Shown piece by piece: positions 3,021 to 32,482 of a stretch of 37,755 bases of DNA. The notes under the pieces are model-generated. The model had not been told where the DNA came from. It did not search any database and worked only from the letters and a program-made list of their open reading frames with translations. Origin of the DNA: Chloroflexota bacterium (GTDB lineage: Bacteria > Chloroflexota > Limnocylindria > Limnocylindrales > CSP1-4); contig VBFZ01000038.1 of assembly GCA_005880805.1 (NCBI GenBank), forward strand, positions 1 through 37,755, written 5' to 3'. Numbering within the stretch: the stretch's first letter is position 1; every line of letters starts with the position of its first letter. Made by a program: the position numbers and the translations under genes.

Positions 3021-4043
3021 ATGACTGCCACCACCGCGATCACCCGCTTCGTTCCGACTCCCGAACAGTACGCGTGGACGTTCGGCGGCTACGAGCCGGT
3101 CAAGCGCATCCGGCCGGGCGAGCTCCTCGACCTGTTCACCGAAGACGCCTTCGCCGGCCGGATCCGCTCGAGGGACGACCTCCCGAGCAAGTCGATCGTC
3201 TATCCGTTCATCAATCCGCAGACCGGACCGTTCTACGTCGAAGGCGCACAGCCCGGGGACACCCTGGCGATCCACCTGATCGACGTCCGGCCCGCCCGCG
3301 ACTGGGCGGTCTCGACGACCGTCCCGCTGTTCGGATCGCTCACGGGCACGAAGTTCACTCCGACCCTGCAGCCGCCACTGCCCGAGAAGACGTGGGTCTA
3401 CGCGGTCGACCGCGACGCATGCGAGGTGACCTACACCGCGCTTGACTCGGACTACTCGGTCCGGCTGCCACTCGAACCGTTCCTGGGCACGATCGGCGTC
3501 GCCCCCGCCGCGTCAGAGGCGCGCAACGTGCTCGTGCCCGAGGCGTTCGGCGGCAACATGGACACCCCCGAGGCCCGCGCCGGGACCACCATCTACCTCG
3601 GCGTCAATGTCGACGGCGCGCTGTTCTCAATTGGCGACGGCCACTACACGATGGGCGAAGGCGAGGTCTGCGGCGTGGCTGTCGAGGGTGCGATGGACAC
3701 GCTCCTCACCGTCGACGTGATCAAGGGCGAGTACTGCACCTGGCCACGACTCGAAAACGACGAGTTCATCATGGTCGCCGGTTCGTACCGGCCACTCGAG
3801 GATGCCTTCCGGATCGCACACACGCAGCTCATCGGCTGGATCTCACAGGAGACCGGCCTGTCACTCTTGGACACTTACCAGCTCGTGACCCAGGCCTCGA
3901 GCTCGCCCATCGCGAACGTTTGCGACGCGAATTACACGATCGTGGCAAGGATGCCCAAGCGATTCCTGCCCGAACGGGACTGGATGCACGGCGTTCATGG
4001 CCGGTTGCGTGCAATCGCGGAAGAGGCAACGCCTCGCCCGTGA
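3021..4043 (+). CDS. Acetamidase/formamidase family protein
   Basis: NPQTGPFYVEGAQPGDTL, PFLGTIGVAP, GGNMD, FSIGDGH and GEGEVCGVAVE motifs. GGAGG SD upstream. Confidence 0.92.
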   Translation: MTATTAITRFVPTPEQYAWTFGGYEPVKRIRPGELLDLFTEDAFAGRIRSRDDLPSKSIVYPFINPQTGPFYVEGAQPGDTLAIHLIDVRPARDWAVSTTVPLFGSLTGTKFTPTLQPPLPEKTWVYAVDRDACEVTYTALDSDYSVRLPLEPFLGTIGVAPAASEARNVLVPEAFGGNMDTPEARAGTTIYLGVNVDGALFSIGDGHYTMGEGEVCGVAVEGAMDTLLTVDVIKGEYCTWPRLENDEFIMVAGSYRPLEDAFRIAHTQLIGWISQETGLSLLDTYQLVTQASSSPIANVCDANYTIVARMPKRFLPERDWMHGVHGRLRAIAEEATPRP

Positions 4044-4086
4044 AGGCGGGGCCCTCCCGGGCCACCCCTCGCGCGCAGGCCGGGAG

Positions 4087-4117
4087 TTGACGATGACCGT
4101 GTAATCGATTATCACAA
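4087..4117 (+). promoter_or_regulatory. Putative promoter (-35 TTGACG) with overlapping LacI/CcpA-type operator TGTAATCGATTATCA
   Basis: TTGACG at 4087-4092. Perfect palindrome TAATCGATTA at 4102-4111 within a TG..AANCGNTT..CA LacI-like pattern, upstream of the sugar ABC operon. Confidence 0.55.
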
Positions 4118-4345
4118 GCGCGGACAACGGTCCGACTGTGTTCTCGCTCGGGCGTTCGGCTGCCGAGAGATTAGGCGGCGCGTACGCCGCTCGACGATTG
4201 CAGGTGAGCCGACCGACCACACTCCTTTGCCGGAGGGAGTGGCCTCCGAACCTCCGCAGCTGGCGGCTCCTTCGCCATTTTTCGAGCGGTTGACGCGGCG
4301 ACTGGTCCTCCGTCCCCGGGTGTACGGGCGGAAAAGGAGGAGTGA

Positions 4346-27781: not shown

Positions 27782-29614
27782 ATGACGACCACAACCGAGA
27801 CGATCGCCACTCCCGCCCTGCCCGCACGGCGACGCGTGCCGCGCGTGCGATCGGTGGTGGCCGCGTTCGTCGTCGGGGCGATCCTGGCGACCACGGCAGG
27901 CGCCGTGTCACTCGCCGCCTACAGCCAGATGCACGCCGGCAAGATCCTGCCCGGCGTGCACGTTGGCACCGTCGACGTATCGGGGCTGGACCGGGCCGTC
28001 GCAGCGGACCGTCTCAACGCCGCGTTCGCCTCATATGGGCAGGGCAAGCTCGTCCTGTCTGTCGGGACGACGTCCGAACAGATCGCCTATTCCGACATCG
28101 GTCGCGGGCCGGACGTCAACGCCATGCTCGACGCGGCGTTTGCCGTCGGTCGCGGTGGCTCGGCGGCCGACCAGACGGTGGCCATGCTCCGGACCCTGAC
28201 GAACGGCGAGGTCGTGGAGCCGCGCGTGACGTTCGATCGGGATCGGCTGAGCCAGAAGTTTGCGGTGATCGCCGCCAGGGTCGATCGTGACCCCGTCGAC
28301 GGTGAGGTCAGGACGGTTTCGGGCGGTTTCAACGTGACCCAGGCGGTCGAGGGCACGTACTTCGACTACCAGGCCGCGAGCGACCAGCTTGCTGCCCAGC
28401 TCAGCCAGACGAGTGCGCCCGCGGAGCTGCGCGTGAGCTTCGAGCCAACCGTGCTCCATCCGACGATCACCGCCGACGCGACGGCCGAAGCCCAGGCCGC
28501 CGCAGCCCGGATGACGAAGCCCATCCTCCTCGAGGCCGGCGATGAGCAGTGGACGCTGCCTGCGACCACCGTCCGGAGCTGGATCGATTTCGGCCTCGTC
28601 AATGGGACGTACGGCCCGCAGGTCGACGCCGCGGCGGTCAAGAAGGCGGTCGCCAAGCTCGCCGCCACGATCGACCGGTCGCCGGTGAACGCGAAGTTCC
28701 TGTTCGGAAAGAGCAATCGGGTGGTCGGCGTGACGCAGTCGTCGAACGGCCGGGCCCTCGACGTCGCCGCAACGACCGCCCGGATCGTGGCCGTGGTCAA
28801 TGCGCGAGGCAGCGCGGGCCTGTCGCCCACGGAAAGTGTCGTGCCAGCGCTCGTCACGAAGGTCCCGCGACTGACCACCGAGGTCGCAAGAAAGAGCGCG
28901 CCGCTCATGCGCCCCCTCGCTTCATGGACGACCTACTACGAGGTCGGCTCCCACAACGGGTTCAGCGCCAACATCACGGTCCCTTCGATGTACATCAACG
29001 GAACCGTCGTGGCGCCGGGCGAGTGGTTCAGCTATCTCCAGGCGATCGGCCCGATCACGACGGCGCGCGGGTTCAAGTTCGGTGGCGCGATCATCAACGG
29101 CCGCTCCGTCGAGGGCACGACGCTCGGCGGCGGGATGTGCTCCTCGTCGACGACGCTGTTCAACGCCGTCGCTCGCTCAGGCTTCCAGATCGGGGCGCGC
29201 CGCAACCACTACTACTACATCGCGCGGTACCCGCTCGGCCTCGACGCCACGGTGTTCATCGACGGCGGCTACGCGCAGGACATGACCTGGCGGAACGACA
29301 CGCAGTACCCGGTGCTCATTCGAGCGATCGCCCGGCCCGGCATGATCCGCTTCACGCTCTACAGCGTGCCAACCGGCCGGACCGTGTCGCTGACCCGGCC
29401 GACGGTCAAGAACTACATCGGCGGCTACACCGTCACGCGGGACTCGACGAGCATTCCCGCGGGTACCTACAAGCAGGTCGAGTACGCGGCCAACGGCCAG
29501 GACGTGTGGGTCACGCGCACAGTCCGCGACCGCAGCGGCAGGGTCATCCACCAGGAGACGTACTACTCGCATTACACGCGGATGATCGGGATCATCCTCC
29601 ACGGGGTGGCTTAG
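27782..29614 (+). CDS. VanW-family protein with putative peptidoglycan-binding (PG_binding_4-like) repeats and G5-like C-terminus
   Basis: N-terminal TM, GVHVGTVDVSGL, VAPGEWFSY, GGGMCSSSTTLFNAV, RRNH, GLDATV, DMTWRNDT, VWVTRTV. Confidence 0.88.
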   Translation: MTTTTETIATPALPARRRVPRVRSVVAAFVVGAILATTAGAVSLAAYSQMHAGKILPGVHVGTVDVSGLDRAVAADRLNAAFASYGQGKLVLSVGTTSEQIAYSDIGRGPDVNAMLDAAFAVGRGGSAADQTVAMLRTLTNGEVVEPRVTFDRDRLSQKFAVIAARVDRDPVDGEVRTVSGGFNVTQAVEGTYFDYQAASDQLAAQLSQTSAPAELRVSFEPTVLHPTITADATAEAQAAAARMTKPILLEAGDEQWTLPATTVRSWIDFGLVNGTYGPQVDAAAVKKAVAKLAATIDRSPVNAKFLFGKSNRVVGVTQSSNGRALDVAATTARIVAVVNARGSAGLSPTESVVPALVTKVPRLTTEVARKSAPLMRPLASWTTYYEVGSHNGFSANITVPSMYINGTVVAPGEWFSYLQAIGPITTARGFKFGGAIINGRSVEGTTLGGGMCSSSTTLFNAVARSGFQIGARRNHYYYIARYPLGLDATVFIDGGYAQDMTWRNDTQYPVLIRAIARPGMIRFTLYSVPTGRTVSLTRPTVKNYIGGYTVTRDSTSIPAGTYKQVEYAANGQDVWVTRTVRDRSGRVIHQETYYSHYTRMIGIILHGVA

Positions 29615-30326
29615 CAGCACCACGAGGCCCTCGCTGCGGGCTCCCCGGCCCGCTCGCGAGCAACGGAACGAGGTCATCCAGACGCTCGACGACGAGCTGA
29701 GCGCCTGCGCCGGTCAGAGCCTGAACGTCGACCGCCGAGCCAGCGGTCACGCCGACCGCGATCATGCCGGCCGCCACGGCCGACACCATGTCCCACGTCG
29801 AGTCGCCGACGTACCAGCAGCGGGCCGGGTCGACCTCCAATTCCCTGGCCGCGAGCAGCAGGAGGTCCGGCTCGGGCTTCGCGTGCTCGACGTGGCTGCC
29901 GTCGATGATGGCCGGCTCGCGAGACAGCTCGAGCGCATTCACTGATCGAGCGACCTGCTCGCGCCTGCTGGAGGTCGCGATGCCCCACCGGCTGCCCTGC
30001 TCGTCGAGCGCCGAGACGAGCGCCCTGACGCCCGGCAGCGGCTGTGGTTCGGTGTTCAGTCGCTCGAAGACCTCCCCGCACGCCTTGTCGATCTCCTCGG
30101 CGCGTCGGTCGTCGATGGGTCGACCCGCAGCGGCGGCGACCTCGCGCGCCAGCCGTTTGCCGTCGACGCCGATCAGGGGTGCGAGTTGCTCGCGGGTCGT
30201 CGCGAATCCCTCATCGCCCAGGGCTTGCCGCCAGGCCTCGATTCGGATCTCGACCGTATCGACGAGCGTCCCGTCGAGATCGAACACGACGGCCGACGGA
30301 CGCGGCAGTTCCTGGAGCGCGGGCAC
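29592..30326 (-). CDS. HAD family hydrolase (phosphoglycolate phosphatase / beta-PGM-like)
   Basis: VVFDLDGTLVD, WGIATSS, KPEPD, YVGDSTWD. The track ORF is over-extended; a GTG start at 30326 is preferred. Confidence 0.9.
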   Translation of the reverse strand: MPALQELPRPSAVVFDLDGTLVDTVEIRIEAWRQALGDEGFATTREQLAPLIGVDGKRLAREVAAAAGRPIDDRRAEEIDKACGEVFERLNTEPQPLPGVRALVSALDEQGSRWGIATSSRREQVARSVNALELSREPAIIDGSHVEHAKPEPDLLLLAARELEVDPARCWYVGDSTWDMVSAVAAGMIAVGVTAGSAVDVQALTGAGAQLVVERLDDLVPLLASGPGSPQRGPRGAAKPPRGG

Positions 30327-30359
30327 GGAGCAACGATACGCGGCGGCGTGTAACCGAAG

Positions 30360-30390
30360 GCATGAGTTGACCCGCCAAGACAACTCATGC
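30360..30390. repeat. Perfect 10-bp inverted repeat GCATGAGTTG-N11-CAACTCATGC (left repeat site)
   Basis: Read directly at 30360-30369 and 30381-30390. Confidence 0.9.
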
Positions 30391-30616
30391 TCCCGGGCCC
30401 CAGCGATAACTCTTGGCTCTGGGCCTAACAACCAACTTCGCCGAACAAGACAACACAGCAACCGAGGCCTCGAGGAGCGCCTCGACAGCCGCTCCTCGTC
30501 GTGATGTACCGGCTTCACCGGCACGGCGAGGGGATCGAACTGAAGACGTCGATCCACGAGCACTGACCCCGTCCTGCCGAACGCAGGTCGGGTCGGGCCC
30601 TTTCTAGGGAGGTCAT

Positions 30617-31654
30617 TCAGCTCTGATGTCTGGGAGAAGGCACTACCTCGAGGAGCTCTGCTCGGACCTCGTCTGTAGATGCTCGCCGCAGCTCAATGAG
30701 CGCAGTCAGGCCGAGCGGCTCGCGTGCGTCGCCAGCTGCTCGCGTTCCCCATAACTGGACCTTCGCGCGCCATGTCGGCACCGACCCATCCGCGGGTTTT
30801 GGCGGCTCCGCCGGGGGATATACGCCACTTCCCGGCGTCATGGCGAGAACGAGACCTTTGGTCGCTAGGGTCGCGTCCAAGCGCTCATCCCGGAGCTCGC
30901 CGCCAATCAGCGCCCGAACAATCCGGCGGATCGCTTGATAGGCCTCGGGGCCCGATGTTTGTCCGGGCCAACCCGGGTCCATGAACCACTCGGGCGGTGC
31001 CGGACGCAGGGGAGCCGCCAGCGCCTCATCGAGGTCTCCCAGGGCATGGACTGCGGCACGACGAACGCCTTCGTCGCGGTCGTTCTTGGCGACAGAGTAG
31101 ATGAAGGACGTGATGCCGCGCTTCAGCCTCCCGCGGGCTTGGGTCAGCAGCAGAAGGCTCCCCACCGCCTCTTCGCGGACTAGGGGCTCGGGGTCCTCGA
31201 GTGCTGTCGAGCGCAATACGCCAAGTGATTCGGCGTCACGCAGGATTCCCAGCTCCCTGGTTGCCCAGAGCCGGGTGCCACCGCCGGGATGGCCGACGAG
31301 CTCACGCATGATCGACTCAAGGACACCCGGCTGGTCCTTGGTCGCCCGTTCCGGACCGTGCCGGATCCCCTGCGTCATCTCCCACGGATCATCGAGCGGC
31401 GCCAAGTCGTAGAGCGGGGCGATGCCGTCGATTAGTCCACGCCGCCCGATTTCGTCCGCGAACGCGAACATCAGGCCGAGCCGATCCCAGAGCGCGGGAT
31501 CATCCCAAGCGCTGTCGATGATCTCCGCTTCACGAAAGGGCTCGGTCCCGCGGATGGCGCCGAGCAGGTCCTCGTCCTTCAGCGACGTCAGTCGGGCCGT
31601 ATGGATCGCTATGCGCGCGGCCGCTGTTTCACCGGTCCGGGGCTCGGACGCCAT
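30617..31654 (-). CDS. Hypothetical protein with HEAT/PBS-lyase-like repeats and an unassigned C-terminal domain
   Basis: GGAGGAGGAG SD before ATG 31654. HEAT-like segments TRLWATRELG, EDPEPLVREEAVGSL, DRDEGVRRAAVHALG. Confidence 0.75.
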   Translation of the reverse strand: MASEPRTGETAAARIAIHTARLTSLKDEDLLGAIRGTEPFREAEIIDSAWDDPALWDRLGLMFAFADEIGRRGLIDGIAPLYDLAPLDDPWEMTQGIRHGPERATKDQPGVLESIMRELVGHPGGGTRLWATRELGILRDAESLGVLRSTALEDPEPLVREEAVGSLLLLTQARGRLKRGITSFIYSVAKNDRDEGVRRAAVHALGDLDEALAAPLRPAPPEWFMDPGWPGQTSGPEAYQAIRRIVRALIGGELRDERLDATLATKGLVLAMTPGSGVYPPAEPPKPADGSVPTWRAKVQLWGTRAAGDAREPLGLTALIELRRASTDEVRAELLEVVPSPRHQS

Positions 31655-31722
31655 CGCTCCTCCTCCTGCGTCGACAGTGGGCCAGCACGGAAGGACGGTC
31701 AAGCTGCCTCCGCGGACCAACC

Positions 31723-32013
31723 ATGCGCGGCCCCGGCAGGGCGTCCCCGCAGGAAGTCCCGAGCCAGACTTGGAACCCGTGGGACTACGCGGACGGCCAG
31801 ACGTATGTGGCCGGGATGTTCGTCGACTCCATCAAATTGCGCGCGTCGGCCTTCGAATGTCCCGTCTGTCGGCTCGTCCTACAAGATGCGACGCTCGAGC
31901 AAGCCGATCTCAACACCGTGATCTTCCGACAACCAGCGTTCGACGGCCAGCTCGCCTATAGCCAGTTTCGCCGCGTCGAGGCGGAGGATCAGCTGGGCGA
32001 CTGGGATCGGTAG
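31723..32013 (+). pseudogene. Probable C-terminal gene remnant with a CxxC (FECPVCRLVL) zinc-ribbon half
   Basis: 96-aa ORF with one CPVC pair, no SD, start abutting the divergent HEAT gene leader. It could also be a small intact gene or spurious. Confidence 0.35.
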
Positions 32014-32034
32014 GCCCCAGGACCAGCCTTCGGT

Positions 32035-32074
32035 CAACACATGCCCTCGCCCGAAGACAACTCATGCGTTCGGG
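32035..32074 (+). repeat. Right repeat site: CAACACATGC and AAGACAACTCATGC
   Basis: AAGACAACTCATGC at 32054-32067 is identical to 30377-30390. A variant CAACACATGC is at 32035-32044. Confidence 0.85.
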
Positions 32075-32108
32075 GACACGGCGCCCGGGCCGCGGGCAGG
32101 GTGGAAAG

Positions 32109-32482
32109 TGGTGGAGATGGGGGAGAGTCGAACTCCCCGTCCAGAGCCCTTCACCAGGGACCACTACGAGCGTGTCCGATGATTTGTCGTCGACCGGCTG
32201 GTCGGCCATCGGCAGCCTGCCATCCGGTCCAGTCACGTGCCCCTAGATCGGGCTTTGCTCCGGACTACGCGACGCTGATCCTGAGCGCATCCCCGCTGAA
32301 TGACGCTTCCACGACCCGCGGGGATGAGGTCGCTTCCACGCTCACCTTACGGCCTAAGCCGCGAGGGCGAGAGCAGTCTGGCGGTTGCCAGTTACTTCGT
32401 TTTGCCGCCTGTTTTACGAGGCCTGACGGCACCTCGGCTCGCGTTCCCTGACAACTGGACCCTGTCGAGACCACGCATCCCC
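32109..32482 (-). ncRNA. ssrA: tmRNA (transfer-messenger RNA)
   Basis: 5' GGGGAUG pairs with 3' CAUCUCC-ACCA. T-arm GGGGAGUUCGACUCUCCCC. 5' UCGAC motif. Tag frame 32389-32354 encodes GNRQTALALAA*. 374 nt, near smpB. Confidence 0.97.

Follow-up and report, generated by a model that had tools for sequence, protein, structure and literature searches.

In a soil Chloroflexota bacterium of the class Limnocylindria, the genes for transfer-messenger RNA (tmRNA; ssrA) and for a HAD-family phosphatase are separated on contig VBFZ01000038.1 by a segment that holds a HEAT_2-domain gene and a 96-codon open reading frame (ORF), and that is bordered on both sides by copies of a short repeat. This raises the question of how the segment came to lie there and what the repeats at its borders represent. 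The whole stretch of DNA analysed, referred to as the window, comprises positions 1 to 37,755 of this contig, and the assembly examined consists of 266 contigs (2.75 Mb, 68.7% G+C, 85.5% complete). A first-pass annotation, made from the letters of the window, had described the repeats as a four-copy binding motif bracketing an accessory segment, and had proposed recombination or cassette sites served in trans, or the ends of a decayed element. The analysis described here identifies the segment as an insertion relative to the ancestral tmRNA-HAD junction, and assigns a probability of roughly 0.7 to its being one non-autonomous transposable element, 1,730 bp long, of the kind called a 'mobile insertion cassette'.

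An insertion of 1,730 bp behind the tmRNA gene

In genome G001, which belongs to the same genus, the HAD gene follows directly after the tmRNA gene, and the junction reads, in minus-strand orientation, ...CCCGCGGCCCGG CGCCG CCGCGTATCG..., which aligns with ...CCCGGG CGCCG (TGTCCCCGAACGCATGAGTTG ... CAACTCATGCCTTCGGTTACA) CGCCG CCGCGTATCG... in the window (inserted segment in brackets). BLAST comparison of the G001 locus with the window returned two pieces, 96.6% and 93.1% identical, that end at 32079 and 30348 and overlap by 5 nt, and the same breakpoints with the same 5-nt overlap were obtained with L108, an independent JGI metagenome contig (93-97% identical). Because both empty sites break exactly there, the segment is described as an insertion of 30349-32078 with a 5-bp duplication (Table 1), which extends 4-5 nt further on either side than the 30354-32074 delineated earlier. 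The chance of two 5-mers of the window being identical is 0.002. Counting the 5-nt duplication, the tmRNA-side tip of the insertion is 30 nt past the CCA end (25 nt without it), and the HAD-side tip is 22 nt upstream of the HAD start codon (17 nt without it).

Besides these two empty sites, a second genome of the same genus (G002) and three contigs encoding an 81%-identical HAD protein (L109-L111) are devoid of the segment and display the gene order SmpB - proline racemase - YjbR - tmRNA - HAD - VanW. The tmRNA gene could be located in 22 of 24 family genomes, in which the sequence downstream of it was read. The segment had been considered accessory at first sight, which was borne out, since neither same-genus genome has it and it is likewise missing in the independent metagenome contig and in 39 of 40 relatives.

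Table 1. Window coordinates of the inserted element, its ends and cargo, and the flanking host genes
Feature	Position	Strand	Remark
Non-autonomous inserted element of 1,730 bp with terminal inverted repeats (TIRs) at its boundaries	30349..32078		BLAST of the empty-site loci L013 (G001) and L108 breaks exactly here
Target-site duplication CGGCG, HAD-proximal	30344..30348	+	Twice in the window, once in the empty sites (G001, L108)
Target-site duplication CGGCG, tmRNA-proximal	32079..32083	+	25 nt past the tmRNA 3' end
TIR of End B (HAD side), TGTAACCGAAGGCATGAGTTG, includes the copy 30360-30369	30349..30369	+	18/21 versus the reverse complement of the other terminus
TIR of End A (tmRNA side), minus-strand sequence TGTCCCCGAACGCATGAGTTG, includes the copy 32058-32067	32058..32078	-	Present in all strain contigs containing that end
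Subterminal copy A2, minus-strand sequence GCATGTGTTG, repeats the End A terminal copy directly, 23 nt further inward	32035..32044	-	
Subterminal copy B2, CAACTCATGCTCCCGG, inverted versus the End B terminal copy	30381..30396	+	
Fifth, degenerate copy, CAAGACAACACAGC	30446..30459	+	Inside the window-specific version of the variable spacer
Hypervariable non-coding spacer, HEAT stop codon to B2	30399..30630		About 231 bp here
Cargo gene 1, HEAT protein, 345 aa	30617..31654	-	Pfam HEAT_2, 7e-11
Cargo gene 2, 96-codon ORF, zinc-ribbon-like	31723..32013	+	Conserved core 31816-32013 (65 aa)
tmRNA gene (ssrA), intact, flanking host DNA	32109..32482	-	ARAGORN; Rfam RF00023, 125 bits
HAD-family phosphatase gene, flanking host DNA	29592..30326	-	Pfam HAD_2, 5e-33; synteny in L013, L010, L108-L111

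Terminal repeats and their variation among strains

The tips of the insertion, which were delimited independently of the repeats by the empty-site alignment, carry an imperfect TIR in which 18 of 21 positions match (TGTnnCCGAAnGCATGAGTTG) and which gives the element TGT...ACA termini. A match of this quality was reached by none of 2,000,000 random pairs of 21-mers drawn from the window, and it constitutes the strongest inverted repeat of the region. A precise empty site, a 5-bp duplication, TGT...ACA tips and TIRs of about 21 nt together form the signature of DDE (Asp-Asp-Glu) transposases of the retroviral-integrase superfamily, and since these features coincide at this locus, the insertion was most likely made by an enzyme of that type.

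The four copies of CAAC[T/A]CATGC reported previously were all recovered, at 30360-30369 (-), 30381-30390 (+), 32035-32044 (+) and 32058-32067 (+), against an expectation of 0.04 copies per window in dinucleotide shuffles, none of 100 of which reached four. A genome-wide search, as had been suggested, retrieved a single further match to the 10-mer in 2.75 Mb (C92:3614), which lies inside a membrane-protein ORF and is a chance occurrence within that gene, and mismatch-tolerant searches of the whole assembly gave no additional end-like sequence. The motif pattern is real, far above chance, and confined to this locus. A regulator site scattered over promoters was rejected as an explanation, as the motif is confined to the element and its sole match elsewhere falls in a coding region.

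The sequence common to both ends was found as previously noted, i.e., as a 14-mer (AAGACAACTCATGC) at 30377 and 32054 that extends with ...CGGG to 18 of 21 positions. The heptamer CCGAAGG/CCTTCGG had been placed beside the outer motif copy at both ends, which does not hold for the right one; there, CCTTCGG (32027-32033) adjoins the element-internal copy at 32035, and what follows the terminal copy (32058) is GTTCGG, or CCGAAC when read on the opposite strand. The full repeated unit measures approximately 16 nt (CCGRRnGCATGWGTTG) and starts 6 nt from each tip, the 10-mer being its inner part. Moreover, a fifth, degenerate copy that had been overlooked (CAAGACAACACA-GC, about 30446-30459) is located some 60 nt further inward on the End B side. 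At End B, the terminal copy and B2 form a hairpin or palindrome of 10 perfect and up to 16 imperfect pairs (z = -1.9 as RNA on the minus strand and -2.7 on the plus strand), and End B is the only one of the two ends that forms a hairpin.

The cargo proteins were encountered on at least 18 metagenome contigs, all of which represent the same locus, and 11 of these contigs could be scored for the ends. Soil samples yielded L055, L056, L097 and L100 (ERZ28573528, ERZ27315388, ERZ28573563, ERZ27286363). No contig that extends to a terminal repeat lacks it, and every captured junction shows the duplicated 5-mer. The TIR of End B is invariant in all strain contigs containing that end, and the TIR of End A has one substitution, at position 4, in L055 and L056. 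The subterminal copies are more variable: A2 is deleted in L055, L056, L102 and L106 (4 of 11) by a clean deletion between the two direct copies and has a perfect form in L104 (GCATGAGTTG), and B2 carries a 1-nt insertion in L055, L056, L060 and L100 (CAACTCATGGC). The notion of a four-copy binding motif as a functional unit was abandoned on these grounds, only the two terminal copies being constant among strains and the inner copies being deleted or mutated in several of them.

The non-coding spacer behind the HEAT gene is exchanged for a 116-bp version in four contigs (e.g., L055:1701-1817), and the two versions align only in patches, in strains that are 98-99% identical on both sides of the spacer. 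Contig L061 ends at 30630 and contigs L097 and L103 start at 30676, at or near the edge of the spacer, which fits strains differing at that position. These variable states are not linked, as exemplified by L100, in which the 116-bp spacer occurs together with two copies at End A. The two spacer versions could be caused by slippage among the motif copies or by recombination with a diverged copy. The comparison of the ssrA-HAD interval among strains thus found relatives that vary rather than relatives of identical content, and the pattern fits relaxed constraint on all parts of the element except, possibly, the cargo.

These strain data also bear on the idea that the repeats are operator sites or hairpins of a regulator or terminator serving the HEAT and HAD genes, their position at the ends being incidental. 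The stable End B hairpin is located 17 nt upstream of the HAD start (22 nt with the duplication counted), the insertion cut HAD off from its former upstream sequence, and the small ORF has a CxxC motif, all of which would suit such a role. The inner copies are dispensable among strains, however, and apart from its one chance match the motif is found in the genome only within the element, which contains no regulator gene and in which neither a sigma-70-like promoter nor an intrinsic terminator was detected. As this explanation moreover leaves the target duplication and the coincidence of repeats and boundaries unaccounted for, it is regarded as very improbable.

The neighbourhoods of ssrA genes are classic integration hot-spots, and the segment could in principle be the remnant of an island left by a lost site-specific recombinase; crossover would then have taken place at CGCCG as the core, with the inverted terminal units acting as core-type half-sites. 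Sites of the attL/attR type likewise look like a short direct repeat flanked by inverted sites, and stray copies of the tmRNA 3' end occur in three other genera as isolated 18-nt matches (model positions 346-363) away from the real ssrA (G024:C8:305362-305379, G010:C2:1826-1843 and G012:C6:87949-87966), which could be att scars of integrase-type islands. At the present locus, however, the repeat is just 5 bp long and lies 25 nt outside ssrA. In agreement with the first-pass annotation, a repeat search of the region and an Rfam scan detected no duplication of ssrA or its 3' end, and ORF and Pfam scans detected no integrase in the segment; there is none adjoining it either. The flanks of the empty site resemble the terminal units weakly (about 8 of 15 positions, by eye), though a recombinase must bind both, and the TGT/ACA tips fit DDE chemistry. 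A recombinase origin is therefore judged improbable.

Several more specific readings of the repeats were rejected. An ssrA integrase island is contradicted by the lack of an ssrA fragment at the distal junction and of an integrase in or beside the segment. For an integron attC site or cassette, which would have an R''-L''...L'-R' layout and generate no target duplication, the palindrome arms GTTGACC and AGACAAC do not conform, by inspection, to GTTRRRY and RYYYAAC, and a 5-bp duplication is present. The link to ssrA islands and cassette sites implied at the outset was replaced by transposition, to which the 5-bp duplication and the TGT...ACA TIRs, 25 nt past the tmRNA 3' end, point. An IS200/IS605 or REP-like hairpin element is at odds with the TIRs and duplication, the single copy, and the hairpin at one end only. 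Finally, tandem or nested older elements as the source of the inner copies were dismissed, as inspection revealed no internal junction of a left end with CGCCG.

Cargo genes and host surroundings

Of 40 related genomes, 39 do not have the HEAT gene, both same-genus members being among them, and the protein family of this gene is tiny, with 10 relatives among 5.8 billion proteins. Its homologues, with 45-64% identity, reside in unrelated neighbourhoods that lack the repeats. A higher share of A/T-ending codons had been perceived in the segment, and the G+C content at third codon positions (GC3) bears this out for the HEAT gene (0.729, 2nd percentile; genome mean 0.839, standard deviation 0.048) but not for the small ORF (0.804, 21st percentile). 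By the HEAT gene's distribution among relatives, its GC3 and the unrelated contexts of its distant homologues, the cargo looks foreign.

The AlphaFold model of the HEAT protein, with a predicted local distance difference test (pLDDT) score of 85.7, shows a HEAT solenoid in its N-terminal part and an alpha/beta domain in its C-terminal part. A PDB fold search with this model retrieved only generic HEAT and alphaRep matches, and PADLOC, NCBIfam and Pfam likewise disclosed nothing on cargo function beyond generic HEAT matches. The C-terminal domain of about 100 aa recurs in another genus of the family as a fusion to DUF4240 (G020, L002:988-1821), and a 45%-identical HEAT homologue stands in a same-strand gene row beside a SMI1_KNR4 protein (L058:2429-4396). 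This fusion and this neighbour hint that the HEAT protein may act like an immunity protein. On contig L097 (positions 2-1029) the HEAT gene is called in two pieces, of 265 and 77 aa, which could reflect a frameshift or nonsense mutation.

The small ORF had been considered a probable gene remnant, which is correct for its 5' part, since that part is lost, but not for its C-terminal 65 codons, which look coding. A homologue with 85% identity is encoded on an unrelated contig (L107), and over these last 65 codons the window and L107 differ at 6, 5 and 23 sites in codon positions 1, 2 and 3, respectively; because the differences pile up at the third position, the C-terminal part is taken to be real coding sequence. 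The reading frame on L107 is longer and contains two CxxC motifs, and the window copy has a 2-nt deletion and lacks the first of these. Judged from these sequences, the small ORF looks like an N-terminally truncated copy of a CxxC...CxxC protein of roughly 105-115 aa. It has no match in Pfam, NCBIfam or PADLOC. The fuller homologue (L107:90-437, about 115 codons, with CPAC...CPVC motifs) derives from an unrelated organism, in which it is positioned upstream of a gene for a secreted trypsin-like protease of 468 aa (L107:1253-2659, GDSGGP motif). The two cargo genes also served, through their homologues, as guides to related elements, and these homologues were found in unrelated contexts without TIRs.

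In the genomes without the insert (L013:1876-1925 of G001; L108; L109) only about 47 nt separate the CCA end of the tmRNA from the HAD start codon, and a terminator could not be recognised. Because of this short gap and the lack of a recognisable terminator, HAD may be co-transcribed with ssrA in these genomes; in the window, the insertion places 1.7 kb between them. The host sequences outside the two target duplications (30311-30333 and 32084-32106) are direct repeats with 74% identity (TTCCACCCTGCCCGCGGCCCGGG / TTGCTCCGTGCCCGCGCTCCAGG, minus strand). Both exist in the empty site, 15 nt apart and flanking the insertion point, and they may be due to chance in G+C-rich DNA or be a feature of the target.

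Origin of the element and its place among known systems

A transposase would not fit into the element, and Pfam, NCBIfam and PADLOC gave no transposase, integrase or other recombinase domain in it. The earlier suggestion of ends of a decayed element, served in trans, was upheld in that the repeats are the ends of an element without an enzyme of its own. The course of events considered most probable is a single insertion in the ancestor of this species-level lineage, for which a DDE transposase of the retroviral-integrase type would have been supplied in trans by an unsampled autonomous relative. The 16-nt unit CCGRRnGCATGWGTTG would be the former, putative binding site of this transposase, and the extra subterminal copies would have been accessory sites. 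Since no cognate transposase was found in the genome, the element is probably immobile at present, and it appears to be decaying, with inner repeats lost through slippage between copies, a remodelled spacer and an intact HEAT gene.

The only rve-domain gene of the genome belongs to an IS481-like insertion sequence (G000 contig C182, about 3190-4170, minus strand, 325-codon frame), which has the ends TGTGATTCATGAAGACGTTGTTGAC / TGTGATTCCCGGACACGTTGTTGAC and is flanked by CTAG-containing sequence. Mobilisation of the element by this copy was rejected on account of its different ends and target. None of the rve genes in 24 family genomes is near ssrA. In 400 family genomes, searched with one mismatch allowed, matches to the end signature remained at the level of a reversed-pattern control. 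The large collections were scanned with exact patterns, which diverged ends would escape: one genome for each of 185,579 species gave four isolated matches, apparently in coding sequence; 241 million metagenome records gave two contigs of the same locus and two chance matches in low-G+C organisms; and viral contigs and plasmids gave no relevant match.

Several observations weigh against a transposon origin. Neither an autonomous relative with matching ends nor a second copy of the ends was found in the genome or in any of these collections. One insertion site is known, and because all of the cargo contigs represent that one locus, it is only from the anatomy of the junctions that mobility can be deduced. 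The subterminal layout, with direct copies at one end and inverted copies at the other, is not textbook for any family, and site-specific recombination is another process that can leave a short direct repeat with inverted sites on its flanks. Furthermore, at an overall identity of 97-99% among the strains, little can be concluded from their conserved terminal repeats.

A more specific version of the transposon interpretation is that of a miniature Tn7-like (or Tn5053/Mu-like) element homing on ssrA. A selector of the TnsD/TniQ type would read the conserved tmRNA 3' end and direct the element to a position downstream of it at a set, short interval; the 16-nt units would serve as TnsB-type sites, and the packed End A, turned towards the attachment gene, as the 'right end'. 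TGT...ACA tips and a 5-bp duplication are hallmarks of Tn7 and Mu, shared with Tn5053 elements, and both are present here, together with several transposase-site-like repeats per end, a 23-nt packing at the gene-proximal end, and an insertion 25 nt past a highly conserved RNA gene, in a geometry like that of Tn7 at glmS. The core of the outermost site lies 11 nt from the tip, and for Tn7-like elements a median offset of about 12 bp is reported (PMC8649781). However, a site preference cannot be demonstrated from one insertion, and the literature checked contained no mention of ssrA serving Tn7-like elements as an attachment site. In addition, neither in the element nor near it were TnsA, TnsB, TnsC or TniQ genes found (no separate search was made for tnsC and tniQ, and the assembly is 85.5% complete), the single rve match of the genome is IS481-like, and no rve gene was seen near ssrA in the family. 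Within an end of a Tn7-like element the TnsB-binding sites all share one orientation; here, End A has two direct copies, 23 nt apart, and the inner copies of End B are inverted relative to the terminal one, unlike those of Tn7 ends. A Tn7-like identity is, on balance, unlikely.

Further-reaching, and decidedly doubtful, is the idea that a transposon lineage of the Limnocylindria (Chloroflexota), so far unsampled and homing on ssrA by Tn7-like logic, shows its first trace in this element. A target selector would read the tmRNA 3' end and a transposase the 16-nt CCGRRnGCATGWGTTG sites, the autonomous members would be too rare or too repetitive for current assemblies, and the present member would have survived through a useful passenger, possibly an immunity-like HEAT protein.

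With the non-autonomous transposon as the preferred interpretation, an unexplained repeat pattern becomes a mobile element with base-pair boundaries and an empty-site control, and accessory DNA directly after a tmRNA gene need not stem from an integrase island. For the annotation of Limnocylindria, an uncultured class of soil and freshwater, the HEAT gene and the small ORF are to be viewed as horizontally acquired cargo. The 21-nt end signature moreover provides a handle for finding the autonomous transposon, and if it were true that this partner selects ssrA, a new attachment site would be added to the repertoire of guided transposons. As matters stand, the element is a routine mobile-element relic of modest interest.

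Among known systems, mobile insertion cassettes (MICs), exemplified by MIC231 of Bacillus cereus, are close in build. The curators of ISfinder use this term for elements that have inverted-repeat ends and passenger genes, lack a transposase and can be moved in trans only (PMC3129680). MICs and MITEs (miniature inverted-repeat transposable elements) count as recognised derivatives of insertion sequences that can be moved in trans by a cognate transposase (PMC3129680). The element shares with them TIRs and a short target duplication around transposase-less passenger genes, and its size of 1.7 kb with two genes fits a MIC; it differs from them in lacking a second copy in the collections searched and in the extra subterminal motif copies at each end.

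Islands and prophages at ssrA recombine within the ssrA 3' end, duplicate that end and carry a tyrosine integrase. The element resembles these in being an accessory segment immediately after a tmRNA gene, but it lies 25 nt outside ssrA, has a 5-bp duplication and inverted-repeat ends, and has no integrase. Tn7 inserts at attTn7/glmS, and CRISPR-associated transposons (CASTs) insert at tRNA, ffs and similar sites. The ends of Tn7-like elements contain arrays of sites of roughly 16-22 nt, the outermost about 12 nt from the tip (PMC8649781). The TGT...ACA tips, the 5-bp duplication, the site arrays in both ends and the position a few tens of bp past a conserved gene are in common with this group, whereas the two or three sites per end, the inverted inner sites at one end and the single known insertion set the element apart.

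Finally, insertion sequences of the IS481, IS3 and IS21 families employ DDE transposases, have TG(T)...CA tips and generate duplications of 3-8 bp, and IS21 has multiple terminal repeats. The element agrees with these families in its tip dinucleotides, duplication length and inverted-repeat length, but the IS481-like copy of this genome differs, as its ends (TGTGATTCATGAAGACGTTGTTGAC) have no more than TGT and GTTGAC in common with those of the element, and CTAG is its target. Viewed against all of these systems, the element would be an ordinary kind of mobile DNA, from a transposon family not sampled before.

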